Source of the DNA: Microbotryum violaceum
Taxonomy: Eukaryota
Assembly: GCA_001244265.2 (NCBI GenBank)
Contig: CDLV01000015.1
Location: 558,001 to 622,000, forward strand
Direction of reading: 5' to 3'
Length of the DNA: 64,000 nt
Part shown: positions 11,511 through 34,704 of the stretch, one piece after another
How positions within the stretch are numbered: position 1 is the stretch's first letter
Layout: every line of letters starts with the position of its first letter
The notes under the pieces: model-generated
What the model was told of the DNA's origin: nothing
Database searches by the model: none
Seen by the model: the letters and a program-made list of their open reading frames with translations, nothing else
Position numbers and translations under genes: made by a program

Positions 11511-11642
11511 GTGCGCTTCGACTCGGCCGTAGCGCGGGCGGTCGCGAGCCCAGCTGGCGGCGTCACTTCGCGCTCCCACCCTCTGTCCCCCCTTGAACCA
11601 TCTCGTTGAACCTCAGATTGCGTCCCCACACCGGTCTGAACC

Positions 11643-12660: not shown

Positions 12661-12774
12661 AGCGAAAGTCGGCAGTGGCAGCTGAGCCGAGGATCGACGG
12701 TGCGCCGCCCCCCTGCGGATGTTTTTGCTTGCATCGTATTGTGCGTAACACATCGTCTTTCCATGTTCTCTGAG

Positions 12775-12862
12775 GCCGAAATAGCTCAGTTGGGAGAGCA
12801 TACGCCTGAAGTATTCAGGTTCATACAGCGTAGGGTCCCTGGTTCGAGCCCGGGTTTCGGCA
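12775..12862 (+). tRNA. tRNA-Phe(GAA) with ~15-nt intron
   Basis: GCCGAAA/TTTCGGC acceptor stem, TAGCTCAGTTGG A-box, TACGC-CT-GAA..GCGTA anticodon arm, GGTTCGAGCCC T-loop, downstream T-run. Confidence 0.95.
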
Positions 12863-14189
12863 TCTTTTTGCCTCCCGTTGCGATGGAACGCAAGTCGAGG
12901 CGCACCAGCGACGCCCCTTTTGAGTGTCTTTTCTGCATTTCCTTTTTGGGCGTTTAGTACTGCGTGCGTCGTCGACGATTCCTTGCCACTGCCGCTTCTG
13001 CGGCTGCGTTCACCACCTGTAGGCTGTAGGGTGCGCACCGTTCCTCACTCCCAAGAATAGCTCCCACTGCAGCTGCGAGCAGCTCGTCTCAAACCGTGTA
13101 GGCAACGAAATATTCACTCTTCCTTTTACTGGTCACTACAGCGCGTCATATGATCCGATCCAAAAGGAAGAAGGGACCCAATGTATTCATTCTTTTAGAG
13201 ACCAGTGGGATTCCGTTAAGTTAACGGGATGATTCCAAATGGCAGGAGAATCGAACGCTATTTTGACGAAAGACAGCAGAGAACATTACTCAGATCTTGG
13301 CCCTCCCTGGCGACCTTAGGACCGGCGCATAGTGGCGAGGGTTTCTTCTTGAATGAGTGTCACAAAATCCGATGAGAGTGGGAGTGGAAAAGAAAAGGTT
13401 AGATGGAGTGGCGCGGGTTTGTTCACGGGGTGTGATGTGTTGTTCAGCCTGATATGGCCCTGATGCTGCTGGTCGGCTAGCCGGCCACGTGCTTGCCGTC
13501 CATTTTAAATACAAGTGCTCGCACTGTTCTACGTCAATGAAACAGTGAAGAAGAATACTGGGAATGCTGTAGCTTCGTTCGACTGGCGGGAAAAATACAA
13601 AAGTTGCCATAGAGCTTGTACATGACTTCTGATCGGAACATGGACACCACAGGCACTGCAGGTGCGGCAGACACAACAGTGTGCTGGTACATCCACCACA
13701 CTGCGCAGGCGGCCCTCCGGGCCGCAACCTATTTAAAAACAGCGATCTCAGGTACATTCCTCAACTCACACTTTTTTGGACTAGTTAGAGTAAAGGAAAC
13801 AGCAGATAAATAGGACTAGGAGGAAGCGAACCACCGCCTACCACCGCTATACGATTATCGATCATTTTTATGTTCGAACCGCTAACTATATAGTTGTTCC
13901 TTCCAAGTCTCTGTCCTTGCGTGACACTAACCAAGCAAATTAGACCCTGTATCCGCTGCACGGCCGCGCATCGCCGTCTGCGAGTGACTGTGACCTTGGC
14001 CAATTTTGTCGGAGTGCAGTGCATGCAGTGGCCCGGCGAGTCACTGCACTTCGAGAGGCTGCGAGCCGTCCTGCTGCCACAGAGTGCAACAGGCTGCGAC
14101 AGGCAGGGTGCGCCGATGTTGACGCGTCGCGCTCTCACCGGCTAGCTCTTGGCTTCTCCCCTTGTGAACCACTTCCCACTTGCTTGGTC

Positions 14190-15677
14190 ATGAGCGCCGC
14201 CCAATCGTCGTCGGGTGATCAAAATCTCACCACGCCCGCACGCCCGGCTGCTTTGCCTGGTCAAGCCCAGGCATCAAAAAAGAGGACCGCCAAGCAAAAA
14301 GCTTACTCATCCAACGTCGCTAATGCAAATTCGAAAGAACCCAAATGGGATTGGACCGATGCGGAAGTGATTGCAATGTTGCAAGTCCTCAAGCACATCG
14401 GTACGCCGTCTTTCCCGGACTCGGTCTTCATCAAAGCCAATGAGGCGGTCAGCTGCTTGGATCCTACCAAGACTGGCAACTTCAAGAGGGTTCATCAAAA
14501 GTGGAAATCGGCGAGTCGCGCATGACGCGTCGGTTCGTGTCGCTCAATCTGGATCTCGCACTTCTGACAATACCGGCCCTTGAAAACATGCCCAGTGCTT
14601 GTTCGACACCGATGTTATCAACGAGATCAGGAGCATTCGTGGCGGCGGATGGGACGAGATCAATTCTCGCCCACTCCTGAACGCGGAGCAATGGAAGGCG
14701 GTGAGCGCGTCAACTGTGGTTTGGTTTGTCGCGACGCGTCGCTTACGAGATTCCACCACGCAATCGCCAAATGCCCTAGAGCGGCAATCATCGAGAAACG
14801 TCCATCGAATTTCTACTACCCTTTGACGGCGGCGATCCTGGGGAAGGACTACGCCACGGGTAGTGAAGGATTCAGCTATGGGGACGACGCGTCGACGACA
14901 CAAACCCCGGCGCCCCATCCCGGCCGTCGTTGCCAAGGCTCGGAAGCTGAAATCCTCGGGCTTTCAGAAGAGGATGCTTCGGAGAGTACGGGTGAATTTG
15001 ATGAAGATATCGACCCTCGCGCAGCGTGTGCAACGGTAGGCCTTGGATGCCCTTGCTTGCTTGCCCGAAACCATCGGCTCGTCGACCGCGTGCTGACGCT
15101 CGAGTAATCTCCAACACCGCGTTTACAGCCTTTGCCAGCTTTACGAGCGAAGTCTGTAAGTAAATGTGTAGACGCCAGCTACCGCCCATATGGTCATTCT
15201 GGCCTTTGCTTGATTTGTTTTGCCGTGTTCCTTTCCCAGTCCACCCCCGCCACCAAGAAACCGCGGCTCTCTCGCGACCGTGCCTCTGTGCAACAGCGTG
15301 CCATCATGCAGGCAAGACGGGAGCACCTGGACAACACGCTCGCTGTCCTGAAACAGAAACACGAGGAATCGACCAATCGTATGATAGAACTCCTCGACCG
15401 CGTGATGTTAACCGATCGTGAGAAGTTCCTTGAGCACTTTTACAAATTCGAGGAGCTCGACCAGCCGGCGTGGGATAAAGTCGTGTTCTATGTTGCTGCC
15501 TGTGGGGACACTCTCCCTGTCTCAGTGGTCAGCTACCTGGCCAACCTCAAGACCCGGTGGAAGCCAGATTGGAGTGCCGCTTCGGAGATCATTGCCGAAG
15601 CACGCAATTTCAAGGAGACCGACTATGGTGGGGTTCAGAACTTTGATGTGCCTCCGATACTGCATCCGATGCAATGA
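14190..15677 (+). CDS. Harbinger accessory Myb/SANT-like DNA-binding protein (multi-exon, possibly decayed)
   Basis: WDWTDAEVIAMLQVL...VHQKWKS trihelix-like pattern, then SGGGWD..L.LNAEQW-like segment, beside the transposase. Confidence 0.6.
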
Positions 15678-15679
15678 AC

Positions 15680-16953
15680 AACACCCAGGCTCTGACATGA
15701 ATCTGGCCTGTAAAAGTGCCACATACCGCTCGATTACTCAGTTCGATATCGTAATGTCATTTCTTATCATCTTCTTGAAAGCTTCGCAGACTGTCTTTCC
15801 TGCTGGCTCTGAACTCACCCTTTGCCCTCAAATATTTGTGCTCTCAGACCGTGGATGTCCGAAGATTAGAGGATCAGAAGTAGACTACAGCAACCAGCCT
15901 GAAAGCATAGCCTTGACACGCTTCTGGTCATGCGCGCTGCGTTCAGACCCCGCATGTAGATGTAGGAATAGCAAGTCAAACGAGCACACCGCGAACATGT
16001 TCTGGGATAGAAATCCCTTTCGATTTCGAACCGACGATCATCGCCTCAGCGCGCCTTCCAAAGGACGTGAATGCCGTCTAGAGCGCCAATGCACTGGCCG
16101 AAATATGGCTTGAGCTTCGGGTTGCGTGTGATGATTTTGCTGGTAGGTTCATCGGGTCTCAGTCGATGCACATATATGCCATAGATTTTGGAGGTAATAA
16201 TCGCTTTGACCACTTCGTGAATATACCTGCACAAGGGACAGTAAACCGATGAGCTCGCTGCAAAATTACGGTGAAGAGGAGACGACAAATTAAAGTAAGG
16301 ACTGGAAGCCTTTGCGCAAAAGATAGCTTCCACTCACAAAGCGATGGTTGAAGTTGTTGGAATCAACAAAGATTCCGAAATGATCAACAAAATAACAAGA
16401 ACGGCTGGACTAGGAATCGAACCTGGGTCGCTTCCATTCATTAGAAAAGCTTTGACCAACTAAGCTCCTCGGCCCCTGATATCTGTGCAAGGTCTACTGA
16501 CACCTTCAACAGAAGTCGAGTGCTGAAACCTATGACCCATTTTCCGAACACCATCACTGTGTCGAAGTGCCTGCAGGAGAAATCCGACCCTCTGCTCGAG
16601 TTGTATGAAGTGCGAATCCGTGGAGCCTGAGTAGTGTGGATTCGGAGATCTTGCACGAGCTTGGTGAAGCAGGTGGGTGCGAGGCCAAGCTCATGCAACA
16701 TATTCTGTGGACTGCTGGGTATGAGACACTGAAGGTAACGGTGCCCCGTGTAAGGCGAGTTGTGTATTGGTCTGGGGGGAGAGCGGGGCACTGTTTCGTC
16801 GTCGTCGTCCTCAAACATTTCAATGAGATGCCGTAGCTCTAGTGCTAGTGCTTGAGCCTCTTGACGCAGATGTTCTTTGACAATGCTTGCCATCCCTCGT
16901 TTTTGGTGCATCTTGCCCTGTGAAACCATTGTCGTGAACAGGTGCTGCAACAT
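15680..16953 (-). pseudogene. Harbinger (DDE_Tnp_4/HARBI1-like) transposase pseudogene
   Basis: IHNSPYTGHRYL..ELGL..F.KL, RFQHS, NPKLKPYFGQCIGALDGIHV, RNRKGFLSQNMFAVCSFDL..AGSERSAHD, VIER. Contains stops and frameshifts; intron 16227-16501. Confidence 0.88.
16402..16474 (-). tRNA. tRNA-like pseudogene (anticodon not assignable) inside the transposase intron
   Basis: Minus strand reads GGCCGAG GA GCTT AGTTGGTCA AAGC T TTTCT AATGAAT GGAAG CGAC CCAGG TTCGATT CCTAG TCCAGCC G. D-stem, A-box and B-box are intact; acceptor and T stems have mismatches. Confidence 0.7.
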
Positions 16954-17459
16954 GGATTGCGTATGGAGAAGTGAACCAAACCAAAACGTTATTTTATGAG
17001 CCGACCGCGCCGCGATCGAGGAAAGTGAGGCAAACAGGGCAACTTGTCCAGTACTTGTCCCAACATGTGACCGCACCACTCTGGCACGCCGACGCGTCAT
17101 GGAAGGGAACCAGCGCGAGGAACACTTCAATCAGTCCGGCAATACAAAGTGCGACTTTGCACGTTGACGTTTTCGCAGAACTCCGAGGAGACGCTCTCAG
17201 AAAAGTGGGTACCGGTTTTCTTTGGGCTGGCCGATGCGTGCCGTCGCAAGGCATCTGCAGCGCATATTCCGATCATCGGCCATTGGCAGCTCTCCTAATC
17301 TCGATCTAGTGTTTGTACATCTGCATCACAGAGCGATCGGAAACAGAAGCTGGATGTCCCGAGTCCCGCTCCAGAGTTGTGTGAAATTGCGCAGCATGTT
17401 CAAACACTGCTCGGTAAGGCGCGGTGATTGTCCATCCCCTCCTAGTTCCACGCCAAGAG

Positions 17460-17710
17460 TAGTGTTCCTGATGATCACCACGACTTAGTCCAATGAACAG
17501 GAACGAGAACAGAGTGGTCAGAGACTAAGAGGCACACTCATGGAACGCTAACTGATACAGCTCTGCGATAACAGAGGGACTAAGGAGACGATTAGAGCAG
17601 GGAGATTGAGATACCAAAGGGCTCTAAATGAAGGCACGTTGGGCTCAATCCCAAGAACCAACTTAGACGTTGTAATCGATTGAGGGTTATGAAACCAGCT
17701 ATCCTTGACA
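17460..17710 (-). repeat. Diverged solo LTR related to the copia LTRs at 23408 and 24847
   Basis: 17467-17550 aligns with 23507-23590 (cctgatga..accacgact.agtccaatg..acgagaacagagtgg). Minus strand begins TGTCA and could end TA; no matching TSD found. Confidence 0.65.
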
Positions 17711-18061
17711 TACGTCATAATGACCAAGAAACCAATCATATACCATCGCCAACAATGCCATTTTCTGTACTTGCCGCTCTCAGCCTCCGATATCTCAGAT
17801 TGTAAGGCGCCGCTCCAACGACCCCGAGCCAACCTCAGCGGCCCCAAGCTTGACCTCGCGCGCGGCGCCGCAGCGCCGCTTGACCTTAGTCCTTCTGGCA
17901 GTGTTTCTTCGCCTGCGAACTACATCGTTTAATCCTTTCAGTTTGGACTCGAACTCAGTGAGGCTCGAGTGCGATCTCGTGCCTTTCACCGAGCTACTTG
18001 CCAACCCTTGCCAACTCAAACCGATCAGATCAAGGCCCAGTCAAATTACAAGAGTCCAAAT

Positions 18062-19267
18062 CTACGGCTCTGAAATGATCGATTCGATCCACGCATTGTA
18101 CTCGTCGACAATCTGCGACGGGAGGGCGTGTCCTCCGCCCTTGACCTCCTTGAAATGAGATCCCGGGATCGCGGCATGCAGATCCTTGCCCCTCTGGAAG
18201 TCGACCAACATGTCCTGATCACCGTGGATGATGTAGACCTTGTTGATGGTCTTGCCGATCGTGTTTAGTCGCTCCTCCGAGACGTGGTGGTTGAAGACGG
18301 CCACCATCTGCCCGATCCGCCCTGCGACCGTCTGCCGTTTCGTTATGGCAATCCGCTGGATGAAATTCTCGGAGTGGATCTCGCGCCGCGTCTTGCCTGT
18401 CTTTTCGTCGATCGAGTCTAGGTACTCTTCAGGAAAGAGGACAGAACACACCAGACCGACGGCTTGTGACACGTCTTTGAAGAGACCAAACGAAAGCCGC
18501 GCAAACATGCTGACAACGGGCAACTTGGGCAGGTCAAAGGCCGTGCCGGACTTGGTCGAGGTCAGGATGAGCGAGTTGATGCGTTGGGGGATGAGCGTGG
18601 CCTGGATTGATGTCTTAAAAGTACGATCAGCATCGAGGTAGGCACTCCGAATTCAGCCCTACAACTGACCAATTCCAACGCCGTCATGCCGCCCATCGAC
18701 ACACCTACGACATTGAGCGATTTCTCCTCGGTCCATTCGAGATACTCGAGCAGCTCGAGCGTGTCCTGGGCCATTTCTGACGTCTTGTACAGCCTTCTCG
18801 GGGCGTCCGAAGACCCGACGCCACGGTTATCAAAGACGAGAACCTGTGTGGGCTCAGAGAAACGAAGAGCTCGATAAAGTCCGAGGGGTGAAGTCCGGGG
18901 CAGAACTCGCCTGAACGCCTTTGGCGCGACCAAAGAAAGCGACCTGGGCTTGCCATGCAAATGAAGAGTTGTTGAGACCCATGATAAAGAGGAGGCGTTT
19001 CGATTCGGGGGAAGGGTCGCCATGGATTTCTATGAGACCCGCGGTACCGCGTGAAATTGGGTCAATCGAGGATCAAGTGGTATTAGCAAATGAGATCGAT
19101 CCATGCACCCGCCAGCAGACCCAGATACCAGTCCACTTACCATAGTAGAGCTTGTGACGAGCTGGATCGCGCGACGACTTGGTGCAGACGGTGCAGAACC
19201 CCTTACGAAGCGTGGTCGCCGGATCAAACACCGTCGCCGGGTACTCAACATCGGGTACGACCGCCAT
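18062..19267 (-). CDS. Alpha/beta hydrolase
   Basis: VFDNRGVGSS, GVSMGG nucleophile elbow, IIHGDQD, GGGHAL; several introns. Confidence 0.9.
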
Positions 19268-19635
19268 GCGAGCTTAGTGGGTGCTTTGGTAGGGGTTTTG
19301 GATGAGAAGAGCCGGTTCGGGTGACCTGCGGGTCTCGAGGCCTCGATACAGGGGACGTCGGTGAGGGGAGGAAGGAAGCGAGTGATGACGCACTCGGTCT
19401 CGGGGACTTCGACTTCGGCGATCCAGGCTAATGCCCAGCGCCGGCGCCTCGCTCTCGACTAGCTCGCGTGGTTCCGAGTCGACTTCCGCGTGGGTGCAAA
19501 AGAAGAAGAAAAGACAAGAAAAAGGGCGAGTAATGCAAACCTCCTGGCCATCAGAGATATCAGAGCTGCGAGGACTCGATGTCACAGAACGCTGGGGACA
19601 TAACAAATAAAGGCTGGGCCGGCAAGAAAAAAGAT

Positions 19636-19720
19636 AGGTCCCAGCCGGAATCGAACCGGCCTTTCTCGGACATCCTGAAGCAATCAAAACCGAGTGTACT
19701 AGCCGATATACGATGGGACC
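19636..19720 (-). tRNA. tRNA-Gln(TTG) with ~13-nt intron
   Basis: GGTCCCA/TGGGACC acceptor stem, CTCGG-TT-TTG..CCGAG anticodon arm, GGTTCGATTCC, downstream T6 terminator. Confidence 0.93.
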
Positions 19721-19773
19721 GGATAAGGCGATGCCAAAATATCCCAAATTGCGTAATATAAAATAACCAACAC

Positions 19774-19783
19774 ATCACGTGAT
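19774..19783. promoter_or_regulatory. ATCACGTGAT palindrome (E-box/CDEI-like) at the tRNA-array junction
   Basis: Perfect 10-bp palindrome 54-63 bp upstream of tRNA-Gln(TTG); equivalent motif at the second tRNA-Gln. Confidence 0.55.
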
Positions 19784-19789
19784 CCGTCA

Positions 19790-22700
19790 GGGAATCTCAA
19801 TGATTGTCCGGATATATCGGTCGACCGAGTGGCCATCACCGATCGCGCTTGGACTCCTGTATCGCACTGGCAGACCTTGCTGTCAAAGATCGCATTCAAC
19901 CCACTCGACACGATCCGACAACTCCATCCCATCACCCCGGCATTCACTCGCCCTCACTACCTTGGTAGGGGGGACAAACGAGAAATCTGCTCGTGGTCGC
20001 GGATCGATTATATTCTTGTCCAGCGCAGTTGGGCAAACCGGTTGTTGAGCGCTTCCACACTCTTCGATGCGCCCTGCTCGGACCACAGACCCGTAGTTGC
20101 GACTTTCGCATTGCCTACATCGAACGCTGCTGATGCCGAACCACCCCCTGCTCTTCCCACCACGAGTGAATTCATTTCCAGGCTAAACCCAACGGTCTTC
20201 AACGATCAAGACTTTGTCGATTCGATTCCCGGGGTCGTCGACGAGGTCTATCGGAGACTCGAGGGGACCGCTCCACTCGGTGACGTCTATGACGCCGCTT
20301 TGCGGGCGGTCGCAGCCGCTGGCCACGCACGATACCGCTCGACTCGTGCCGACATGCGCCGACTGCGGGCCGAGAACCAATCCGTCATGGAGGCGTTGGA
20401 GGCACACGGTGAGCATATGAATGAGGCCGAGCGCGATGCGTATGCTCTCGCCAAGTCGCAGTTGGATCAGTTGGCGGTAAAGGAGGCTCAGTGGCTGCGC
20501 ATTCGTGCGCATGTGCCGTCAGTCGACTCGAGGGAAGGTCAATCGGCAAGCATTCGCACGCGTCTCAACCGCCGGAGTCGCCAGACGAGCATCGTCTCGC
20601 TGGAGGATGTGGATGGCACCGAGACCGTTGACATGCAGGAGTCGCTGGGTAGTGCTTCACGGCACGCACAGTCGCTCTTCACGCCGGACCCAGCTCGTGG
20701 CGACCCGACGAACGCACGTCGGTCCCTGCTCGACCCTATTCGCGCAGCGAAATGCTACGATGACGACCGCTCGGACCCTACGTTCGGTCGTCGGCTGCCC
20801 CTTCAAGCCAGAGTGGCGCTTGACGAGCCCTTCAACCTTTCCGAGGTCGAAGCGGCGTTGAAGAAGACGGATTCAGGGCGATCACCGGGGCCTTCGGGCA
20901 TTCCGTATGAGCTTTTCAAGGCGCTGCCGACCTACTTCGCTCCCAAGCTGTTGGACTTGTTCAACTCGATTTGGGAGGGCGGCAAAATGACGGCGTCCTT
21001 GGCAGAGGGGCTGGTGCGGCTCTTTCCCAAGAATAAACCGGGGGCCAATCTGAAATCACTGGGGGCATACCGACCGATCACACTGCGCGAGACAACCTAC
21101 AAGGTCCTCAGCAAGGTCTTGGTGGCGCGACTCAATGGGGTGCTCGGCGAGCTTTTGCCGCCGGCGCAACACGGGTTCATGCCATCAAGACGTTCAGCGG
21201 ACGCGGGAAGTCATCTCACTCTCCTTCTCGAAAAAATCCGATCACTCGGTACTGATGTTTTCCCAGAGGGCGCCCTCTTGTCCTTGGATCAGCAGAGCGC
21301 GTACGATCGGGTCGATCACGCATGGATCTTCGACGTCTTCGAGGCCTTTGGCTTTGGTGAGCGTTTCATTTCCCTGCTGCGCGCTCTGTACGATCCCGAG
21401 ACTCTGGGGGTGCGCTACCTCATCAATGGGTTCCCCACGGAGTTGGTGCGGTTGCTGTGTGGTCTCGGTCAGGGGGATCCTCTCTCGTGCCCGGTTTGGA
21501 ACATCACGTTCCAGCCTTTCCTCGACGCCCTCGTTCGGCGCGGGATCGCGCTCGACCTGCAGAAGGTGTGGCCAGGGGGCCGCGTGCGCAGCTTACGCAT
21601 CTGGCGTTTGCCGACGATGCTGTGGTGGTGGTGGAGTCACCGGCGGCATTGTCGAAGCTGGAAACGCTGTCGCAGACGTGGTACGAGGCAACCAACGGGA
21701 AGACCAACACGGACAAGACGCTGGTGCTACCACTCGGACCGAACTGGCTTCGGGACGAGACTGCGCAGGCGCTGCCATCGGTGCAGGAGGGGGAGAGCTT
21801 CAAGTGGTGCGGCTATGCCTTCTTTCGCCATGGTGACTCGAAACTGTTTTGGACCCATGTTCTTGACAGGATCAAGGCCAAGACCCGCGCCGCTGGAGAC
21901 CGGACACTTTCGCCGAGTGGGAAGGTCTTCTATGCCAACGCTCACATCATCTCGACGGTCCTCCACGTGCTGTCGTTCGACATACCGCCTCAATGGTTCA
22001 TTCAGGCGGCGGAGACGGCACTGACGGACTTTGTCTGGGGAGGGCCGCGGCGAAACACCGTCGCTCGCGAATTCGTGTTCCAGGCTCGGGAGGACGGTGG
22101 CTTGGGCTTGATTTCGATCGGCGACATCGTTCATTCGGTGGCGCTTCGATTTTGGGATGCTGTGGCGGGCTCGAACGAGGCGATCTGGGCGCCCCTAGCT
22201 CGCGAGAGCTGGAGGTCCCTCGTCGCTGCGACCCGCGATTTCAGTCCGTGGGGGTTCTTCAGCAGCACGGCTCGGGTCGAGAAGCTGTATCGCGACTCGA
22301 CGCGCTGGGGGACAGTCGTTGCAGCGGCCAGGGTCACAGTTCCAACCATCAAGTCCGAACTCCTTACGCTGCCCGAATTGCTCTCGCTTCCGCCTCGCCT
22401 CCCTTCACTCTATGCTGAAGGTGCCAAGCACGCATATGACGATGCGGACGCAGTGGCGAAATTTGCGCAGATCGCGGACCTGTACTGGAGGGACGAAGGA
22501 AAGGGCTGGGCTCTGGTTGGTCATCGACGCGGGTTCTGGCAGCACTCTAAGGAACCCGCCCTACAGCACGAGCACGTGTGGTCGCGCGTGGGTCAGTTGC
22601 TCAAGGCGAAAGCCTTGCTGACCAAGACCGCGTTGCGACCTGCTCGGATACCTCTCAAGGAGGCTCCCCGTCCTCGGTGCTTCAAATTCTTTGGGCTCAC

Positions 22701-23387
22701 CCGACCTTTTACGATTCGCAAGCTTCGTCGGCTTGTGAACGTGGTTCGGTTCCCGGGAAGGACGGTCAGGACCGAGCTCTGCCTGGTGAGCAACCTCAGG
22801 AGCCTCGGGTCAAGCGTTTCCCCGAGGGGACTTCTCAGAGCGGGAGGCAGCGCTTCTGGAGTTGGCTTCATGACCGGTTCGCGTCTGCTGCGGAGCAGGA
22901 CACCCACTGGCGGCTTATGTACGATGTGACACCGACGCGCAAGAAGCAACATGTCCAGGGCCATGCTTCTTCGCCGTCGTGTCTGTTCTGTGGCAACGAT
23001 GCAGCGGTCATCGAGACGGTGTCGCACTACTTCTTCGGGTGCGCGTACTCGGCCAGCTACTGGAGCGGGGTGCTGCGCATTCTGTTCGACAAGCTCGGCA
23101 TCGAGGATACCGACGTCGATCCGTCGACGTTCACCCAGGAGCAGCTGACTATGGGGCTCCCCCTTTTACGGGGTCGTGGGAGAACGACTTCGAAGTGGAT
23201 GTGGGTTCGGTTGGCTTGTGCGATTGGGTTCCAGCGGTTGCACTTGCTGCGCTGGCACATCCACCAGCGGTTCGAGAAGGACCGCGTCGTGGTCCCTCCC
23301 TCGATCCCCAGTGCACTTAGAGCGTTCAAGCGTGATTTTCTCTCTCGGGCGGGTTTTGTTCCTGGGGCTCGAGATTGGGAGGTGTGA
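19790..23387 (+). pseudogene. LINE A ORF2 (APE-RT-zinc knuckle), N-terminally truncated, two frameshifts (~21580, ~22755)
   Basis: ORFs 19829-22024, 21457-22929 and 22578-23387 tile a single ORF2. Confidence 0.88.
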
Positions 23388-23407
23388 TGACCGAGTTAAG
23401 TCTTTCC

Positions 23408-23752
23408 TATTGTAAAAATGTTCTCATGTGGTAACTGATGAAGACCACGACTCAGTCCAATGGAACGGGACGAGAACAGAGTGAGTAGGATTCCAGAGAA
23501 TGCATACCTGATGAAGACCACGACTCAGTCCAATGGAACGGGACGAGAACAGAGTGGCCAAAGGCTAAGGGACAAACTCCAGAAGGACTAGGAAGGGATG
23601 ATAAGCGGAGATAATAAAGAGCTAATAGTGACTAAAAAAGGGTAAGACAAATGAGGTGCTGAAGGGCTTCATGAAGTCGCTAGAGGCTCAAGATGAAGTA
23701 CCATAACAGGTACTATACGTAGACTGAAGGACGATGCAACCATATAATGACA
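23408..23752 (-). repeat. 3' LTR (TG...TA)
   Basis: Direct repeat of 24847-25191; internal 49-bp repeat at 23435-23483 and 23508-23556. Confidence 0.93.
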
Positions 23753-24188
23753 CTCCCCCGGTTGGAAGGTCCGAAGATGGAGTAAACGGTACATGGTCGA
23801 AGACTTTTGACGAGATCGGGTAAAGCCGAAAGCGACGGGACTTGTTCGGGTAAAAGGGGCCGAAGACGGGTGGCGGTATGACGGACAATGACGCCATAAA
23901 ACGGGATGGAGAACTGATCTGAAAGGGACCAGTATAACCAAATGCGGGGACGGAAGCCAACAAACCAGAGTACGCTGGTGGACTAGTTGGCACTACTTGG
24001 ACTTGGAGCGAAGGGCTGGTGTACGAAGCCATCATGTTCGCAGACGGGGACGGTGATTGGCAAGAATACCAATACGACTTGACGGTTGATCGGGCTGATG
24101 TAGAGACACCGATACGAAACTTGGACGGGTGATCGGCTTGAAGAAGACCGATACGACGAGGACTTGTGAGGATGAGGACTTGTGACGA

Positions 24189-24842
24189 TTAAAGCGAGTG
24201 ACAGAAAGCGCTGTTAACAAACATAGCTTTGGCTGCTTCCTCCTTGACTGCTTGCGCAAAACCAGGCAGTGGAACACCCATAGTGGAGATTTCCTCAACG
24301 GCGTTTAGGAAGTTGGAAACAAACGACTTGAAATTGGACGTGTTGGAACGCGTGAACGTGCTCCGGAAGATGACGGGGATGAGCTGGATGAAGCGAGCTT
24401 CAGCGCCTTTGGTGTGGTGAATCCGTAGGGCGGTCCACATCTCATGGGCTGAAACACAATTCTTGATAATCTTCATTTGAGAACCGGTAATTGTGTTGTT
24501 GATCAACTCAGCAGCTTTGTCATCCTTGGCTTCAAGATCAAGGGTGTAGATGTCGACGAGTCCTTGCTGAGCAGAGGTGAGCGCGCGAGGCGCGGCGGGT
24601 GAAATCTTTGCGCCTGCGGAGGTTGCTTGCGAAGTGGACGGGGTGACAAGGGCGGCCTCATAGATCGCTAGCAGGGCAGGAATGCCCACAGTTGTGACAT
24701 CCAAACATTTCTTGCGACGAAGATGGTTGCTGATCCAGACGGACCATTCTTCGTACGAGTTCGGATTGTCGCTAAGGTGGATCCTAGAGATGAGGGCGGA
24801 AGACGAAGGCTCGAGAGCAGCTTGGTAGCTCGTTGAGCTCAT
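24189..24842 (-). CDS. Copia-type Gag (UBN2-like), 217 aa
   Basis: NSYEEWSVWISNHLRRK..D.KAAELINNTI..QM.IIKNCVSAHEMWTALRIHH; the ATG lies within the PBS. Confidence 0.8.
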   Translation of the reverse strand: MSSTSYQAALEPSSSALISRIHLSDNPNSYEEWSVWISNHLRRKKCLDVTTVGIPALLAIYEAALVTPSTSQATSAGAKISPAAPRALTSAQQGLVDIYTLDLEAKDDKAAELINNTITGSQMKIIKNCVSAHEMWTALRIHHTKGAEARFIQLIPVIFRSTFTRSNTSNFKSFVSNFLNAVEEISTMGVPLPGFAQAVKEEAAKAMFVNSAFCHSL

Positions 24843-24846
24843 AACC

Positions 24847-25512
<666 letters not shown>

Positions 25513-26107
25513 TGATGGATCTCGCCGAATGGAATGGTCGTTACGGCGTGGATCGGGAAGAAGGCTCGTTCGTTTTATTGGATCGTTTTTTTGCCCGACT
25601 TCCGACGGCTCAACAGCCAGCACTCGAGACTCAGCCAAGGAGGGCCATCGGGCGTTGTCGGGGTGACGAGTAGCTGGCGCTTGGCTGCGGCCTGTTAGTC
25701 ATTGGGGACCTCTATCCCTGGCTTCGACCCCTTTCTTGGTCCCTCGGGTGTGTCCCCCCTCCTCCCCCTCCTTTCCCCTTGTTTTAGTATTTTACTTTCT
25801 CGGTGTTCCCGTTTGTGACTTTCTGTATATTCTCTTCCTTCTTTCTCTAGGCGCTCTTGCCTGGTTTCGAGTATCTTCGCTCCCGCGCTTGGGACGTGAA
25901 GCGGCAGCAGTACTCACCCCCGTTGGAGTCCGCGTTAGGTGCTCGGCGGGCTTTGATCTGCGCAGCGCTCTTTGCGCGCAGGGGTTTGATTTTCACCCAG
26001 CTGCTTGTCGTCGTTGCTTTATTACCTCTTTTAGCTCTTTTTGTAGCGATTCTAGCCAACCCGAAGGATCGTAATTTATGAGCCCAGTTAAACAAAAAAA
26101 AAAAAAA

Positions 26108-26882
26108 CGCTCTTTGCGTCGGAGGCTTTGTGAAGTTTTTCCCTCTTCTTTCCCCCCTTTTTCCCTTCCCTTCCTCTTCTCGTTCCTGTTGCTCGGTTGT
26201 TGACTACGCTTCAGCCACTTCTCCTTTTACACCTAAGCCGTGTGTTGGATTCCGTTGAATGGTTCGTTCGTTCGCGTTGGTCAAGATCTACGGCATGGCT
26301 CGGGAAGGAAGGTCGCTCGTTTCTGGTCAATATCCTCGCGTCAACGCGAGGCTCGTTTCGTTGTACTGGATCGCTTTTCTCTCGGCCCCGACGGCTCAAC
26401 AGCCAGCACTCGAGATTCAGCCAAGGGAGGACATCAGGCGCTGTCGGGGTGACGAGTAGCTGGGGCTTGGCTGCGGCCTGTTAGTCCCTGGGGACCTCTA
26501 CCTCCGGCTTCGACCCCTCCCTTGGCCCCTCGGGTGTGTTCCCCTCCTCTCTGTCACAGTATTCCTGGTTCTCCTTATCCCCAGTCGTGACTTTCTCTAT
26601 ATTCTCCCCCTTCTTTCTCTAGGCGCCCTTGCCTTATTTTCGAGTATCTTCGCTCCCCCTCTTGGGACGTGAAGCGGCAGCAGTACTCACCGCCCGTTGG
26701 AGTCCGCGTTAGGTGCTCGGCGGGTTTTGATCTGCGCAGCGCTCTTTGCGCGCAGGGGTTTGACTTTCACCCAACTGCTTGCCGTCGTTGCTTTATAACC
26801 TCCTTTAGCTCTTTTTGTAGCGGTCCCAGCCAACCCGAAGGATAGCAATTTATGAGCCCCAGTCAAAAACAAAACAAAAAAA
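26108..26882 (+). repeat. LINE family A 3'-UTR fragment with A-rich tail
   Basis: Colinear with ~25378-26107; ends tatgagccccagtc-aaaaacaaaacaaaaaaa. Confidence 0.9.
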
Positions 26883-27083
26883 CCCGCTTTCATTCGTCTC
26901 CTGGGGGGAGCAACCGCTTGGCTGGGGCACTTGAATCCCAAGTATCGGATTGGTGGACACCGGCCCGTTTCTCGCATCTTGCGGGCGGTTTGTGTTATTA
27001 TCGTCAACTTCCATCTAGTTTTTCCGTAGGCCAATCAGGGGGAACAGGAATTGGGGGCAATACGATAAATATATCTACAAAAA
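26883..27083 (+). repeat. LINE family B 3'-end fragment
   Basis: Near-identical to ~31870-32065; followed by a degenerate A-like piece to ~27290. Confidence 0.9.
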
Positions 27084-27572: not shown

Positions 27573-27644
27573 AGGTCCCAGCCGGAGTCGAACCGGCCTC
27601 CCCCGGATCAGAACCGGATGTACTAGCCGATATACTATGGGACC
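27573..27644 (-). tRNA. tRNA-Gln(CTG), intronless
   Basis: 72-nt cloverleaf GGTCCCA..TCCGG-TT-CTG-AT-CCGGG..GGTTCGACTCC..TGGGACC T; T6 about 14 bp downstream. Confidence 0.95.
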
Positions 27645-27689
27645 GCTGGAGGGCGCGGTGCGTTAAAACATAATAATATCAAACGCAAA

Positions 27690-27699
27690 GTCACGTGAC
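27690..27699. promoter_or_regulatory. GTCACGTGAC palindrome at the tRNA-array junction
   Basis: Perfect 10-bp palindrome 46-55 bp upstream of tRNA-Gln(CTG). Confidence 0.55.
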
Positions 27700-27703
27700 A
27701 GCA

Positions 27704-27789
27704 ACCCAACTGCTTGCCGTCGTTGCTTTATAACCTCCTTTAGCTCTTTTTGTAGCGGTCCCAGCCAACCCGAAGGAAAAAAAAAAAAA
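27704..27789 (+). repeat. Short LINE A 3' fragment with poly(A)
   Basis: Matches ~26770-26841 and ~34600-34672, followed directly by an A-run. Confidence 0.9.
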
Positions 27790-27790
27790 C

Positions 27791-30700
27791 GGCGGTGATC
27801 TCAACGACTGCCCGCGCCGCCGCCCAGAAGTCGATCGGCGGAACCAAAGTCGGCGCGGCCACCACTGGCCAATCCTGATCGGCAAGCTCGACTCGGCCTA
27901 CACGGACTGCATCCGCTACAAACACCCCATCACCCCATCCTTCACTCGACCTAATCCCAATCGCAAGCGACCCAACTCCTTCTCCCGGCTTGACTACTTT
28001 CTCCTGCAACGGACACACCAAAAAAGACTCGATCAGGCCTCGACGATCTACGACTATCCCAAGGAGCTTTCCGATCACCGACCGGTCTTGATTGTGCTGG
28101 CTCTCTCAGACGATCCTGATGCGACCCTCCCACAGCTCAGCCTACCTACCACATCAAACCAACTACATCGAATCAACACCACAACCTTTAAGACGGTGGA
28201 ATTCCAGCGGATGATGGAAGGATGGTTGGAAGGGGCAAGCGGGGAGGAACCGGTGGGGAAGCTCGAGGTCATTCTGAAGGCGTGCAGGGATAGGGGTGGG
28301 GAGATGGCGAGGAGGCTGCATCGGGAGCGGACGGAACGGATGGAGTATTTGGTGGGGAGGGTGCAGGATCTGGAGGCGATACCGGAATGGGGGGAGGCGG
28401 AAACGGCAGAATGGACAAGGACGTCCGAGGAACTCAAGCGGGCGGTCGAGGAGCGCGCGCGCCTACTCCGGATCCGAGCCCACGTACCCGAGATCGCCTC
28501 CGAGGAACGACTGTCGCGGCCGGTCCACGCCAAGCTCGCGGCGCGGAACTCGGACTCCAAGATCACAGCACTGCGCTTGAGCAACGGAGAGCTAACGCAT
28601 GACATTGATGTCGCTCTTGACCACACGCAGGCGCATTTCCAGCGCCTCTACCACATCGAGCCTCGTGACCCGGACCGCGTCGACCGACTTCGGGACGAAT
28701 TCCTCGCGCCGATCAGGGCGGCGCGGACTTGCGACGACCCGCGCTCGGATCCTCTCTTTCTGCGCCGACTCTCGGAATCGCAGATCGACTTACTCCAGCG
28801 ACCAATCACCGAGGACGAGGTCGTGGCCGCGATCGGGACGACGCACCCGGGGCGATCGCCGGGACCGTCGGGCGTGCCCTACGAACTCTACCAGACCGCA
28901 CCCAAGGCGTGGGCCAAGGTGCTGACCAAGGCCTACAACGCGATGATAGAGCGAGGCTCACTCTCTCCCAAGCAGTGCCAAGGACTCGTGCGCCTCATCT
29001 TCAAGCGACACAAGAAGAATGCCGATCGCGCCGAACTTTCGTCGTACCGGCCGATCACCCTGCGCGAGTGCGATTACAAGATCTTTACCAAGTTCTATGT
29101 CGCCCGTTTGAACCAGATTCTACCCGATCTCCTCCCGCCGCAGCAGCACGGATTCGTCAAGGACCGCCGATCGGCTGACGCTGCACTACACCTTCGTCTC
29201 CTGATCGAGGAAGTTGGCGCGCGCAGGACCGAGTTCCCCGCGGCCGCACTCTTATCTCTTGACCAATCGTCCGCCTACGACCTCGTCGAGCATGACTGGA
29301 TCTTTGCCATCTTTGACGCTCTGGGCGCTCCTGCCACCTTTCTTCGCGTGCTGAGGATGCTCTACTCGGGTGACTCGACCTCGGCCCGCTACATCATCAA
29401 TGGGTTCTTGACGGCGCCGGTACGACTGACGTGTGGGCTCGGCCAAGGGGACCCGGCGTCGTCGTCGGTCTGGGACATCGTGTTTCAGCCGTTTCTGGAT
29501 GCTCTACACCGTCGAAACATCGCGCTGAATCTCTCCATACCTGCACTTCATCCGTACCCACAGAGCCGCGCCATTACATCGCTTGCTTTTGCCGATGACG
29601 TTGTCGTCGCCGTCGCGGGCTTGGGGTCACTCAACTTGCTCGATGACCTGGCGCTCGACTGGAGGCATGCAACGAATGGCCGGCTCAACACGGACAAGAC
29701 GGTCGTCCTACCGATCGGACGCCGCTGGGACCCGGGGCAACGCCCGCTCGTCGTCAAGGCCGCAGGCGAGTCGCTCGAGTGGATCGGCCTCCCCTTCGAC
29801 CGAGCGGCGACACCGAACTCGCCTACGCGAATCTCATCGAACGCCTCGAGGCGACGCTGGAAGGGGTTCAGCATCGCTGGCTCACACACCACACCCGTGC
29901 CTTTTACGTCAATCGGTACGCCATCCCCAAGATCCTGCACTTCCTTGCAGCTGACATCCCGCCGCCCGAAGTCGTCAAGAAGCTCGATGACATGCTCGTC
30001 GATTTCGTCCGTGGGGGCAAGGGCAGGACCAGCTACGGCAGAGATATCGTGTTCACAGCCAAGCTCAAGGGGGACTCGGGGTGATCAGGATGCAGGACGT
30101 CGTGGACGCGGTTGCGGCACGGATCTGGGACGTTCTTCTCGGCGGTTCGGGCGCGATCTGGCAAGGACTTGCGCGCGCGGCACTCCAGCGAGCTCAGTCC
30201 GACCTCGACCTGGCCACCGATCTCTGGCCACATCCATCCACTCCCATCCCCAGCGACCTCCATCCCCGATGGCGAGCAGCATTGGGGGTTCCGAAACAGC
30301 AAGACGCGCAGGTCAACCCGAGGACCTTGACCACCGCGAACTCGCTCGCGCTTCCCACCTTGCTCGGCAGCCTCCACACCCCCATCAGAGGGAGACAGAC
30401 CATCGACGCGGTTCATATACCTGACTACCTTCGTCTCCAGGGCTACCCGAAGGTGGCGGATCTCTATCGGCGCGAGTTGTATGCGGGTGAGGGGTTTCAC
30501 CTTTGGACGCCACCTGCGGATGTGCTCGGTGACAACAGCGAGTACGATCGACGCGGGCTCCCGCAGCGACTGGCAATCGCGGCCTGGTACCGGTTCACTG
30601 TCGATCGACACAAGAACGCGCCCTTGGCGGTGGCAGTGGCGGCAGGACGGCTCAACGTGCCTCCCCGGATCGGCACCAGCGCACCGCTCGAGGCGATTCT

Positions 30701-32071
30701 CCCCAAGCCCGTGGCCCGCTTCTCAATGGAGCAGCGCCTTCCGGACCGGGTGCTTCCACAGCAGGCGAGCCAGTACAAGCTGTTGAACATGGCTCGACCG
30801 TACACCATCCGTCGCATCCGCCGGGTCCTGAACGCGAAGGCCTTTACCAACACGCTCGGGCTCAAGGGACCACTGCAGCCGGGCGATCTCAGGAGCTTCT
30901 GGAAGGCGGTCAACTCGAAGGCACTGACGGCGAGGGAGAGGGAAGTTTGGTTCAAGCTGATTCTCCGCTTCACCCCGACGCGCAAGCTGCAACACCAACA
31001 GAATCACGACACTTCTCCCGCGTGCCTCGTCTGCGAAGCGCCGGTGGACGACACCGACCACTACTTTTTCGGCTGCGTTAACTCGCGGAATGTCTGGATC
31101 GCGGCAAGGGGCGTGCTCTGCGACGCACTCGGGTGCGACACGATTGAGGACGCCCAGTACACGACACTGCAACGGCTCTTTGGCCTCCCCAAGCTCAAGG
31201 CCAAGCTCAGCGAACAGGAAGGGGCGGGCAGGACGATCGAGATGTTCACGGGGATGGTTTTGGAAATGATCAGCAGTGGGAGATGGGGGATGCAGAAGCA
31301 CGGGACGAGGATGGAAAGCGTGGAGAGGAGGAGAGTGGTACTGGAGGAGAGGATGAAGTTGAGGGCGGGAGGAGCAGGGGGCGGGCGAGGGCAGTAGAGG
31401 CTGGGTTCGATTTCCCCCCCACCACACCCCACACACACACACCATCACGCTTCATCTTCCAACAAAACACTGTATACTAAATATCTTGCTTTCATCTTTC
31501 ATCTATTACAGGTCTGCCTTCGTTGCTCATGGACCGGCTCGCGATTTGAGATTGACTCGACGGTGACTCGCGCTCTTTGGCTTCGGGGTTCTGAGTCAAG
31601 GGAGGGATCAGCAGACACAGGCAGAAAGTCGGCTTTGAGGGGCCAGGGACTGCTGAGGTGGAGGTTTTGAGGGGCCTCCACCGCGTCTTGTTGTGACCGA
31701 GCATAGACTTGGGACTTCGCGGGTCAGGGTAGCTGCGCAGTCGCTCTCTTGTCTTTGTCTCGACCGAGTTGGGAAGTGACGGCGGGGTGGGTCTCTTGTC
31801 GTTAGTCAATTATTTTATTACTCTTTCTCTTTCTCTCTCTCTCTTCTTCTCTCTCTCATCTCCTCTCTCTCATTCGTCTCCTGGGGGGAGCAACCGCTTG
31901 GCTGGGGCACTTGAATCCCAAGTATCGGATTGGTGGACACCGGCCCGTTTCTCGCATCTTGCGGGCGGTTTGTGTTATCATCGTCGACTCCCATCTAGTT
32001 TTTCCGTAGGCCAATCAGGTGGAACAGGAATTGGGGGCAATATGATGAACAGTTTCTACCAAAAAAAAAAA
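27791..32071 (+). mobile_element. 5'-truncated L1-like non-LTR retrotransposon, family B
   Basis: Frame open from GGDLNDCP (27791) through [16 protein letters not shown] motifs ([12 protein letters not shown]) and CLVC..DHYFFGC; frameshifts ~29800 and ~30070; stop at 31397; 3' UTR; poly(A) at 32061-32071. Confidence 0.93.
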
Positions 32072-34251
32072 GCGTCTGGAATGTGCTTCTTGGCGGTTCG
32101 GATGCGATCTGGCAGGGACTTGCGCGCGCGGCGATTGTACGAGCCCATCCCACCCCCGACTTTGACTTGGCAACTGATGCGTGGTCTTGCGACTACACTC
32201 CGATCCGAACCGATCTACACCCAAGATGGCAGGCCGTGCTGAAGGTACCATCGACGCACAATGCGCAAGTCAAGCCGAGGACGTTGACGCTCGCGAATCT
32301 TCTCGCCCTTCCGATCAAGTTGCACACCCTTCACTACCTACCGGGAGCACCAGCTGTGTCGCGATCACCCTACGACGTCGACTATGCTGCGTTTGCCATT
32401 TACGCCAAGGTAGCGGACCTGTTCCGACGCGAGCTGTACCCGGGTGGGGGCTTTCATCTCTGGACGCCGCCGACGGATGTGGTCGTCAGCAACAGCGAAT
32501 ACGATCAACGGGGCCGCCCACAACGAGAGCACGTTGTGGCATGGTACCGACATGCGATCAATCGATTAAGGTTCACACAAATAGCTCAACCGGTGGCGGC
32601 AGTACGAATCAACGGGCCTCCCCGAGTCCGCCCCAGATCCGAGGTCCGCCCCACCACGCCGCTCGAGTCGATCCTGCCCCATCCGATCGACCCGCCGCAG
32701 CGCCTTCCGAGACCGGCTCTCCCAGACCAATCAACACAATACAACTTGCTCAGCATGGATCGTCCATACACCATCCGTCGCGTCCGCCGAGTCTTGAATG
32801 CAAAGGCCTTTACCGACACGATCGGTTTCAGGGACTCGCTGCAGCCCGACGATATCAAGGGATTCTGGAAGGGGGTCAACTCGAAGGCATTGACGGCGAG
32901 GGAACGCGAGGTGTGGTTCAAGCTCGTCAGAAACTTCACCCCGACTCGGAGTCTGCAGTTTCATCAAAAGCACGACGACTCGCCCGCGTGCCTCGTCTGT
33001 GGAGCGCCCAAGGACGATCGGAAGCACTACTTCTTCGACTGCGTTGACTCTAGGAACGTTTGGATCGCGGCAAGGGGCGTGCTCTGCGACGCACTGGGGC
33101 TCGACACGATCGAAAACACGCATCACACGGCCGTTCAACACATGTTCGGATTTCCGAAGCTCAAGGCCAGTCTGCGCGATCAAGAAAGAGCGGGGAGGAC
33201 GATCGAAATATTCACCGGGCTGGTCTTGGAGATGATCAGCAGCGGGAGGTGGGGGATGCAGAAGTGGGGGACGAGGATGGAGGGTGTTGGGAGGAGGAGG
33301 ATCATCTTGGAGGAGAGGTTGAAGCTGAGGGCGGGAGGAGCTTGGGGGAGGAGAGGGCAGTAGAGGCTGGGTTCGACTTTTCCCCCATCACCACACACAC
33401 ACACCATATTCTCGTGACATCATTTTCTCCTACTGTACACTAAATAGCTCGCTTTCATCTTTCATTTGTTACAGGTTCAACGTTGCGGAGCATGGACCAT
33501 CTCGCGATTTGGCGTCGACTCGGTGTGGCTCGCGCTCTTCGGCTTCGGGGTTCTGAGTCAAGGGAGGGATCAGCAGACACAGGCAGAAAGTCGGCTTTGA
33601 GGGGCCAGAGACTGCTGAGGTGGAGGTTATGAGGGGCCTCCACCGCGTCTTGTTGTGACCGAGCATAGACTTGGGACTTCTCGGGTCAGGGTAGCTGCGC
33701 AGTCGTTCTCCTGTCTTTGTCTCAACCGAGTTGGGGAGTTGGGAAGTGGGTGCGGGGTGGGCCTCCTGTCTTGGCAGAAAGTCGGCTTTGAGGGGCCAGG
33801 GACTGCCGATGGGGGAGGTTTTGAGGGACCTTCACCGCGTCTTGTTGTGACTGAGCAGAGACTTGGAGCGTCGAGGGTCGTGGTGGTTGCGCAGTCGTGC
33901 TCTTGTCTTCGTCTCGACCGAGTGGGAAGTGGCTGTGGGGTGGGCCTTCTGTCGTTAGTACATTTCTTTTCTTTCTTTTTTTCTCTTCATATCTCTTTCT
34001 CTCTCTCATTAGTCTCTTGGGGGGAGCAACCGCTTGGCTAGGGCATTTGAATCCGAATCTCGGATTGGTGGACTTGGCTCGTTTCTCGCACTTTTGCGGG
34101 CGGTTTGTGTTATCATCGTAGTCTTCCATCTAGTTTTTCCGTAGGCCAAAACAGGGGGAACAGGAACTGAGGGCAATATGATGAACGTTTCTACAAAAAC
34201 AAAAAACAAATCTACCAAAACAAACAAAAACAAAACTATCAAAAAAAAAAA
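32072..34251 (+). mobile_element. More heavily truncated family B variant (C-terminal ORF2 plus 3' UTR)
   Basis: ORF 32083-33363 paralogous to ~30130-31397; 3' UTR has a ~190-bp tandem duplication (33581-33953); A-rich tail. Confidence 0.9.
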
Positions 34252-34704
34252 CCCCCGTCTTCATCAGGCGCTGTCGGGGTGACGAGTAGCTGGGGCTTGG
34301 CTGCGGCCTGTTAGTCCCTGGGGACCTCTACCTCCGGCTTCGACCCCCTCCCTCGGCCCCTCGGGTGTGTTCCCCTCCTCTCTGTCTTAGTATTCCTGGT
34401 TCTCCGTATCCCCAGTTGTGACTTTCTGTATACTCTCCCCCTTCTTTCTCTAGGCGCTCTTGCCTCGTTTTCGAGTATCTTTACTCCCGCTCTTGGGACG
34501 TGAAGCGGCAGCAGTACTCACCGCCCGTTGGAGTCCGCGTTAGGTGCTCGGCGGGTTTTGATCTGCGCAGCGCTCTTTGCGCGCAGGGGTTTGACTTTCA
34601 CCCAACTGCTTGCCGTCGTTGCTTTATAACCTCCTTTAGCTCTTTTTGTAGCGGTCCCAGCCAACCCGAAGGATTGCAATTTATGAGCCCCAGTCAAAAA
34701 AAAA
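34252..34704 (+). repeat. LINE family A 3'-UTR fragment with poly(A)
   Basis: Near-identical to ~26433-26868. Confidence 0.9.

Follow-up and report, generated by a model that had tools for sequence, protein, structure and literature searches.

A spaced 49-nucleotide direct repeat bounds a candidate leader intron in the long terminal repeats of a Microbotryum retrotransposon

Introduction

Reverse transcription erases introns from RNA that has been spliced before copying, and the known long terminal repeat (LTR) retrotransposons with spliced introns hence rely on unspliced RNA. Could an LTR itself contain an intron, and how would such an intron be kept? The question is raised by a 1.8-kb gag-only copia-type LTR element of the anther-smut fungus Microbotryum violaceum, which lies on the minus strand at 23408-25191 of a 64,000-nucleotide (nt) stretch of genomic DNA (GenBank assembly GCA_001244265.2, contig CDLV01000015.1, positions 558,001 to 622,000 of the forward strand; this whole stretch is called the window, and all coordinates refer to it). 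Toward its end, each of the two identical LTRs carries an exact direct repeat of 49 nt whose copies are separated by 24 nt of unrelated sequence, and this spacer and the second repeat copy together read as a 73-nt unit with the ends of a spliceosomal intron. An initial annotation, made from the letters alone, took this unit for a possibly self-regenerating intron within an LTR. Its premise that retroelements should lose introns is too strong, as Drosophila copia, barley BARE1, and legume Ogre are described as LTR elements that retain spliced introns (PMC3735527). The intron interpretation itself finds partial support in a layout that is conserved, resembles host introns, and is transcribed; splicing and rebuilding are what we infer from it.

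A copia-type element with a repeat module in each LTR

The LTRs were recognized as two 347-nt blocks (23406-23752 and 24845-25191) that are 100% identical and lie in direct orientation 1439 nt apart. Once a 5-bp target duplication, GGAAA, is set apart, the LTR proper measures 345 nt and starts at 23408; given this LTR end, GGAAA is found on both flanks of the element. The LTR opens with TGTCA and closes with ACAATA, its CA standing three bases short of the terminus. Because the two LTRs are identical, the insertion is very recent. The gag open reading frame (ORF) matches the Pfam family PF14223 with an E value of 1.2e-09 and 38.4 bits against a cut-off of 27. Pol (protease, integrase, reverse transcriptase, and RNase H) is absent, only about 430 nt separating the gag stop from the 3' LTR, and the element is therefore non-autonomous. 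The sole ORF between the gag stop and the 3' LTR (23688-24035) matches no Pfam family. The element is thus a very young, transcribed, gag-only, non-autonomous copia-type retrotransposon of Microbotryum, with the following main parts.

24847..25191, minus strand: 5' LTR, 345 nt (identical block 24845-25191), 100% identical to 23406-23752
23408..23752, minus strand: 3' LTR, 345 nt, beginning TGTCATTA and ending ACAATA, from self-alignment of the window
23403..23407 (other copy 25192-25196), minus strand: target-site duplication GGAAA, from the flanking letters
24189..24842, minus strand: gag ORF of 217 amino acids without pol behind it, PF14223 (Retrotran_gag_2)

In sense order, the last 150 nt of the LTR form a module made up of a segment L (...CCTTAGCCTTTGGC), the first repeat copy (R1, 49 nt), the spacer (S, 24 nt), the second repeat copy (R2, 49 nt), and a tail (27 nt), after which come the primer binding site (PBS) and the gag ATG. 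The repeats begin at LTR position 197 of 345.

23508..23556 (5' LTR 24947-24995), minus strand: R1, first copy of the 49-nt repeat, identical to R2 at 49/49 positions
23484..23507 (5' LTR 24923-24946), minus strand: S, 24-nt spacer GTATGCATTCTCTGGAATCCTACT, beginning with the candidate donor GTATGC, from the sequence and a contig of sequencing run X2
23435..23483 (5' LTR 24874-24922), minus strand: R2, second repeat copy, containing the branch-like CTGAG and a CAG end, from sequence comparison
23408..23434 (5' LTR 24847-24873), minus strand: LTR tail TTACCACATGAGAACATTTTTACAATA, 27 nt, from the sequence; its GAGAACA pairs with the start of the repeat in a predicted fold

The bases outside the two repeat copies differ on both sides (TTTGGC and CCTACT before them, GTATGC and TTACCA after them). 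S and R2 together (23507-23435, and 24946-24874 in the 5' LTR) constitute a 73-nt GT..AG unit that begins GTATGC directly after the CAG of R1 and itself closes with CAG; the A of its CTGAG lies 18 nt before the unit end. Removal of S+R2 would leave L-R-tail, the layout of a related one-repeat relic elsewhere in the window. The initial annotation had described this arrangement (an LTR at 23408..23752; a 49-bp direct repeat, spacer, 27-nt end, PBS, and gag ATG; a 73-nt GT-AG unit with a branch-like CTGAG), and its extent, coordinates, and letters are all correct. A plain 73-nt tandem duplication was rejected as the source of the module: L and S are unrelated, agreeing at 6/23 positions when aligned by eye. 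In the window, S occurs only in the two LTRs, and 100 shuffles gave 0 matches at three or fewer mismatches.

Transcripts of the element

Four of 17 sequencing runs (X1, X2, X3, and X14) were compared with positions 4845-24844, which include one LTR copy and, to control for splicing, two host genes, for PRPP synthetase and a POP1-like protein. None of the 17 runs is recorded as RNA, and run type was read from intron skipping. Contigs of X2, X3, and X14 skip host GT..AG introns, and these runs are therefore complementary DNA (cDNA). X1 looks like DNA, with 28 of 30 bins covered and no host-intron joint among the joints listed. Each of the three cDNA runs holds contigs of the element with 0-3 differences, and the family is therefore transcribed. 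The X2 contigs cover 23527-23980, 24044-24244, and 24407-24588, and a 1680-nt contig of X14 extends from R2 of the 5' LTR through the tail, PBS, gag, and the unique 3' region (U3) to R1 of the 3' LTR.

RNA includes the unspliced form, since an 88-nt contig of the cDNA run X2 (23469-23556) spans R1, S, and the start of R2 without a mismatch. The start of this contig at 23469 marks a 30-mer that is shared with a sibling element.

Spliced RNA and deletion of the direct repeat by reverse transcriptase would give the same L-R-tail sequence, and this product has no 31-mer of its own because R (49 nt) exceeds the k of 31 with which the contigs were built. Every 31-mer of L-R-tail also occurs in the unspliced form, and k=31 contigs therefore cannot display splicing at any abundance. 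For the same reason, the finding that none of the joints lies at the LTR, among the 15 of 28 that are listed, is uninformative: the contigs cannot carry a distinctive spliced form. Contig depths in X2 (42.2 for the contig that bridges S and 15.7 for the one with U3 plus internal sequence) are not used as evidence, as depth cannot rank parts of a gene. The contigs yielded no transcript starts or ends.

A related family with one-repeat and two-repeat forms

The window contains a relic of a second LTR family in which the repeat is present only once, and no further copy besides this relic.

17467..17539, minus strand: one-repeat relic of a related LTR, comprising L' (17517-17539) and R' (17468-17516), followed by GAACACTACTCT...; 82% identity over 73 nt

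R' is identical to R at 42/49 positions and L' to L at 17/23, and the remainder of the two LTRs no longer aligns. An X2 contig on the relic departs from it behind 17515 with the plus-strand letters AAGGTAAGATTCCAAAGAGCTGACCTGAT (a loose end). Read in sense orientation, this contig continues from ..ATCAG through GTCAGCTCTTTGGAATCTTACCT to TACTCTG.., that is, R1'-S'-R2'. The related family thus shows both a two-repeat form (in X2) and a one-repeat form (at 17467-17539). Its spacer, S', measures 23 nt, matches S in about 18 of 25 aligned columns with the core TGGAATC kept, and by this alignment is clearly homologous to it. The unit of the related family is 72 nt long, against 73; GT, G at +5, C at +6, and the CAG end are kept, R' has CTAAG and CAG, and the donor GTCAGC is identical to that of the host intron at 7864. 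The initial annotation had pointed to related LTRs as the place to look for the layout of a repeat, GT, spacer, and repeat; its presence in this second family means that the duplication is not private to the studied copy, of which 17467-17539 is the one-repeat sister, and that the GT is kept. Judged by sequence comparison, the R-S-R layout is either older than the split of the two families or has moved between them.

The perfect agreement of R1 with R2 acquires its meaning from this comparison, as R and R' differ at 7/49 positions. If the layout predates the family split, the probability of zero differences without homogenisation is about 5e-4, and R1 and R2 would then have been kept alike by recent origin, by template jumps between copies, or by overwriting of one by the other. 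Direct repeats, whether tandem or spaced, are described as being deleted at high rates during reverse transcription (PMC4189041). That a two-repeat form nevertheless survives in two diverged families and in a brand-new insertion therefore argues for a benefit or for restoration, and the two-repeat form is probably useful to the element or restored. Searches of metagenome contigs gave 0 loci with a degenerate pattern of R, and 369 pattern matches for gag of which 0 were confirmed.

Comparison with chance and with host introns

Intron-like units were defined by loose criteria (GT, G at +5, a YAG end in the form of CAG or TAG, and CTRA 10-38 nt before the end). By these criteria the window contains 245 candidates, or about 1.9 per kb per strand. 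With the spacing fixed at 73 nt, position pairs satisfy the same criteria at only 8 of 127,854 places on both strands of the window; two of the eight are the LTRs described here and one is a confirmed host intron. The coincidence of the repeat edges with splice-like signals is far beyond chance.

Nine host introns, identified as GT..AG joints in the cDNA contigs of X2, X3, and X14, provide a local yardstick, albeit a small sample (n=9). Their lengths are 63, 65, 73, 81, 82, 82, 83, 90, and 189 nt; eight of the nine fall at 63-90 nt, a range that includes the 73-nt LTR unit and bears out the initial annotation's view that its size is akin to that of host introns. The host donors are GTGAGT (2), GTCAGT (2), GTCAGC, GTACGG, GTGAGA (2), and GTGAGC. 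The LTR donor shares G1, T2, and G5 with 9/9 of them and C6 with 2/9. A CTRAY branch motif (CTGAC, CTAAT, or CTGAT) is present in five of the nine host introns, with its A located 20-27 nt from the 3' end in the four that were measured.

Primer binding site and sibling leaders

The sequence GGTTATGAGCTC is found directly 3' of the 5' LTR and contains the gag ATG.

24835..24846, minus strand: PBS GGTTATGAGCTC, 11/13 to GGGTTATGAGCCC, overlapping the gag ATG; possibly matched to the anticodon stem-loop of initiator tRNA-Met

The motif GGGTTATGAGCCC, which the leader of a sibling element in the sequencing runs has exactly and in the same place, is presumably the complement of the initiator tRNA-Met anticodon stem-loop. 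No initiator tRNA-Met gene occurs in the window, where the tRNAs are tRNA-Tyr and tRNA-Gln only. Priming from the anticodon loop of a tRNA has been described for Ty5, Drosophila copia, and fungal copia elements (PMC10886601, PMC5371799), and priming in the studied element probably takes place at this PBS overlapping the gag ATG.

Sibling elements differ from the studied copy at both borders of this region. Behind 23498, contigs of X2 and X14 have a loose end (23469-23498) in which the inverse complement of the S/R junction stands directly before GGGTTATGAGCCC and the gag start, followed by GGTTA. This loose end may represent a leader with an inverse-complement stretch before the PBS, possibly a long stem next to it, an explanation preferred over a fold-back or captured cDNA. 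At the LTR terminus, contigs of X1, X3, and X14 with loose ends before 23416 share the tail up to ...GAGAACATTT and then terminate CTGCGACA, a canonical CA end, where the studied element has TTACAATA (23406-23416). The flanks of these sibling LTRs differ between runs, and several copies therefore carry this other LTR end.

A proposed facultative leader intron

The reading that we favour, tentatively and at somewhat less than an even chance, is that S+R2 is a facultative, rather weak, host-type leader intron that is kept or restored through the repeat. From the arrangement of the module we infer splicing, a benefit to expression, and a restoring strand transfer. Part of the transcripts would lose S+R2 and act as gag messenger RNA (mRNA). 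Splicing of the leader would aid expression, as introns can be needed in basidiomycetes for mRNA to accumulate; in the basidiomycete Cryptococcus, accumulation is described as falling greatly when introns are taken out of genes (PMC3744415; PMC5851062). Unspliced transcripts would be the main template for reverse transcription, by analogy with BARE. The 49 nt before the donor are the same as the last 49 nt of the unit, and two removal routes, restoration, and overwriting all follow from this one property. Removal by the spliceosome and a template jump by reverse transcriptase would both produce L-R-tail. Where the 3' end has two repeats, minus-strand strong-stop DNA with a single repeat would pair with R2 of that end, and extension across S and R1 would restore the module. 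Each restoring event would overwrite one repeat with the other, and so keep their identity.

The restoring step would require that the transcript start at or very near R1 and that the poly(A) site lie beyond R2. The only TATA-like motifs are at LTR positions 126 and 135 (60-70 nt upstream of R1), and conservation with the related family sets in 23 nt before R1; these positions decide neither for nor against a start near R1. A cycle in which S+R2 is spliced out for a well-expressed gag mRNA and is then rebuilt, with R2 overwritten by R1 each time, would make the LTR intron self-perpetuating. We regard this as unlikely; if true, it would explain how R1 and R2 can be identical in a layout that predates the divergence of the two families.

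Several observations weigh against the leader intron. The R1-S-R2 sequence is unspliced in the 88-nt contig of the cDNA run X2, and no spliced molecule has been observed, the data being k=31 contigs that are unable to display one. Intron-like units are common by the loose criteria, and the LTR donor is weak by local standards (A at +3 occurs in 1/9 and T at +4 in 0/9 host donors). The branch motif CTGAG ends in G, whereas the five host matches end in C or T. The GT and CAG of the related family are inherited rather than independent, and at about 72% identity two kept bases are unremarkable; conservation is accordingly only modest evidence for function. The identity of R1 and R2 and the existence of a one-repeat sister would be equally expected from template switching without any splicing. 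Restoration would fail if the transcript started well upstream of R1, since L would then be part of the strong-stop DNA, which would pair in register. Finally, the leader intron leaves the origin of S unexplained. Rolling reverse transcription on a lariat or intron circle, weighed by reasoning only, was rejected as its origin because the expected unit (56 nt or S-R-S-R) does not fit.

Other explanations of the repeat

A serious possibility, if on balance a doubtful one, is that reverse transcription alone produced the repeat: a misaligned transfer or template jump gave rise to R-S-R, the splice signals are incidental, and the unit is never spliced. Later jumps between copies would then delete repeats (giving one-repeat sisters), expand them, and homogenise them. 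Retroviral direct repeats are described as often deleted, mostly by jumps within one molecule, and such jumps as underlying variable numbers of LTR repeats (PMC4189041), with which the one-repeat relic at 17467-17539 and the 49/49 identity both agree. The unspliced form in cDNA, the weak donor, the imperfect branch motif, and the frequency of intron-like units by loose criteria are likewise in keeping with a unit that is never removed from RNA. Template switching alone does not account for the source of the 24-nt spacer, which the lack of relation between L and S (6/23) prevents from being the result of a plain tandem duplication. It also leaves unexplained why the edges fall exactly at CAG|GT and CAG| (2 of the 8 hits in 127,854 places), and why a deletion-prone two-repeat form has persisted in families between which 14% of R and about 28% of S have diverged.

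The same conservation can be read in another way, as R is better conserved between the families than its neighbours (42/49, against 17/23 for L and about 18/25 for S). R could be a doubled functional site other than part of an intron, either a promoter-proximal or enhancer element or a partner in an RNA stem by the PBS that would aid primer placement or strand transfer. A stem would be consistent with the predicted pairing of the R start with the GAGAACA of the tail, and with the stretch before the PBS in the sibling (X2, X14), which is an exact inverse complement of at least 30 nt, comprising the last 15 of S and the first 15 of R. Against this, the leader (24800-25020) folds no better than shuffled sequences (z +0.39, with 129/200 shuffles as good). 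Enhancer repeats in retroviral LTRs have a tandem layout. Their number is described as variable (PMC4189041). The repeats of the studied element, apparently unlike U3 enhancers, are found downstream of the only TATA-like motifs, at a distance of 60-70 nt, and at most 150 nt from the LTR end. The splice-like edges are again unexplained, and a doubled site of this kind appears distinctly improbable. That the duplication was created by the assembler is scarcely credible: both LTRs carry it identically, the X2 contig from an independent run crosses R1-S-R2 without a mismatch, and contigs in four runs end at 23527, the point at which a 49-nt repeat forces a k=31 graph to branch. An RNA-family or small-RNA origin of R was also rejected, as 23300-25300 gave 0 Rfam matches at E <=1. 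No such LTRs are reported for Microbotryum in the Helenus/Ajax paper.

Other features of the element and the window

Two further features belong to the internal region of the element.

23753..23759, minus strand: purine run GGGGGAG, polypurine tract candidate adjoining the 3' LTR, read from the sequence
24062..24189, minus strand: tandem repeats after gag with periods of 40 and 16, variable in length among copies, from a tandem-repeat scan

In a protein search limited to near lengths (668 candidates), the sole match of gag was a 318-amino-acid protein of Microbotryum silenes-dioicae, to which it is 98% identical. This protein has about 90 extra residues at the site of the tandem repeats behind gag, and a contig of X14 is about 295 letters longer in the same stretch (24062-24257).

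The plus strand of the window holds three copies or pieces of a non-LTR retrotransposon resembling a long interspersed nuclear element (LINE), with RVT_1 and zf-RVT domains, at 19636-23387, 27573-31394, and 31999-33360. Insertion of the studied element took place right at the 3' terminus of the first of these. In two of the LINE-like copies, the start lies about 100 nt away from a tRNA-Gln gene (27573-27644, minus strand) or from its degenerate look-alike (19636-19721, 75% alike); these copies may target tRNA genes or carry a tRNA-derived head. Direct repeats of 770-790 nt (85-96% alike) at 25562-27083 and 34003-34704 adjoin the 5' LTR and are shared with the 3' regions of the LINE-like elements; this block is probably LINE tail sequence in tandem. 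On the plus strand at 59160-59459, a weak second match to a copia-type gag (27% over 100 amino acids to the gag of the element, tblastn E 0.001) points to a further copia element, unrelated to the studied one, close to the window's end.

Known systems and significance

The module can be set beside several known systems, none of which it matches in full. Drosophila copia, BARE1, and Ogre resemble the studied element in being LTR elements with an intron, and copia and BARE1 are of the same superfamily. In BARE1, spliced RNA is described as favouring Gag production and a distinct unspliced RNA pool as being packaged and copied (PMC3735527). The introns of these three elements are internal (in pol, at the end of gag, or between ORFs), and PMC3735527 describes none that is located in an LTR or that follows a duplicate of its own 3' portion. 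Splicing has been demonstrated for copia, BARE1, and Ogre, as reported there, whereas for the LTR unit of Microbotryum it is a prediction. Split-intron retroviral vectors (Ismail et al. 2000, via PMC3182074) come near the proposed strand transfer in that LTR copying assembles an intron that the packaged RNA does not contain in that form. As described in that source, these vectors are engineered: their donor stands between U3 and the retroviral R region within the 3' LTR, and their acceptor lies farther downstream, past the packaging signal; they contain no direct repeat, and their purpose is removal of the packaging signal. Unlike in the split-intron design, both candidate sites are already together in each LTR of the studied element.

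Two other systems concern the repeat itself. Retroviral direct-repeat deletion, as described in PMC4189041, likewise involves a spaced direct repeat and predicts a one-repeat derivative, which is found at 17467-17539; it accounts for loss, and not for the persistence of two repeats or for the splice-like edges. Intron birth by duplication of an AGGT-containing segment (PMC3265369, PMC4974935) is similar in that the duplication supplies the 3' part of the intron and removal restores the unduplicated sequence. The present module does not conform to that scheme, as its copies are 24 nt apart, the spacer matches neither flank, the donor GT is in the unduplicated spacer, and the setting is an LTR leader rather than a host gene. 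Intron birth by AGGT duplication is reportedly known as the Rogers model.

In Cryptococcus, poorly spliced transposon transcripts are described as triggering RNA interference (RNAi) through SCANR (PMC5851062). The likeness to the present case consists of a basidiomycete host, transposon RNA, and weak introns; SCANR is described there as a host defence that acts on transposon introns generally, with no mention of LTR repeats. Core RNAi genes are reported for Microbotryum (PMC4469406), and by analogy a weak LTR intron could also expose the RNA of the element to silencing.

A literature search found no paper on an intron inside a retrotransposon LTR, which is no proof of absence. New here are the RNA context, a second LTR family in which both forms occur, the reasoning from the identity of R1 and R2, and the explanation of why contigs cannot decide. 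Even with splice signals that are only incidental, the locus would offer a clean natural example of how direct repeats behave in a fungal LTR. If the leader intron is real, an intron within an LTR that is preceded by its own 3' copy would withstand both splicing and repeat deletion by means of strand transfer. Such an intron would reconcile in a new way the opposing demands on an RNA that must serve well both as mRNA and as template. The engineered split-intron vectors would then have a counterpart in nature, one with a built-in marker of the RNA end from which each part of an LTR derives. And if several unrelated LTR families used the design, retroelements would have a general means of retaining an intron that boosts expression where the host disfavours RNA without introns.

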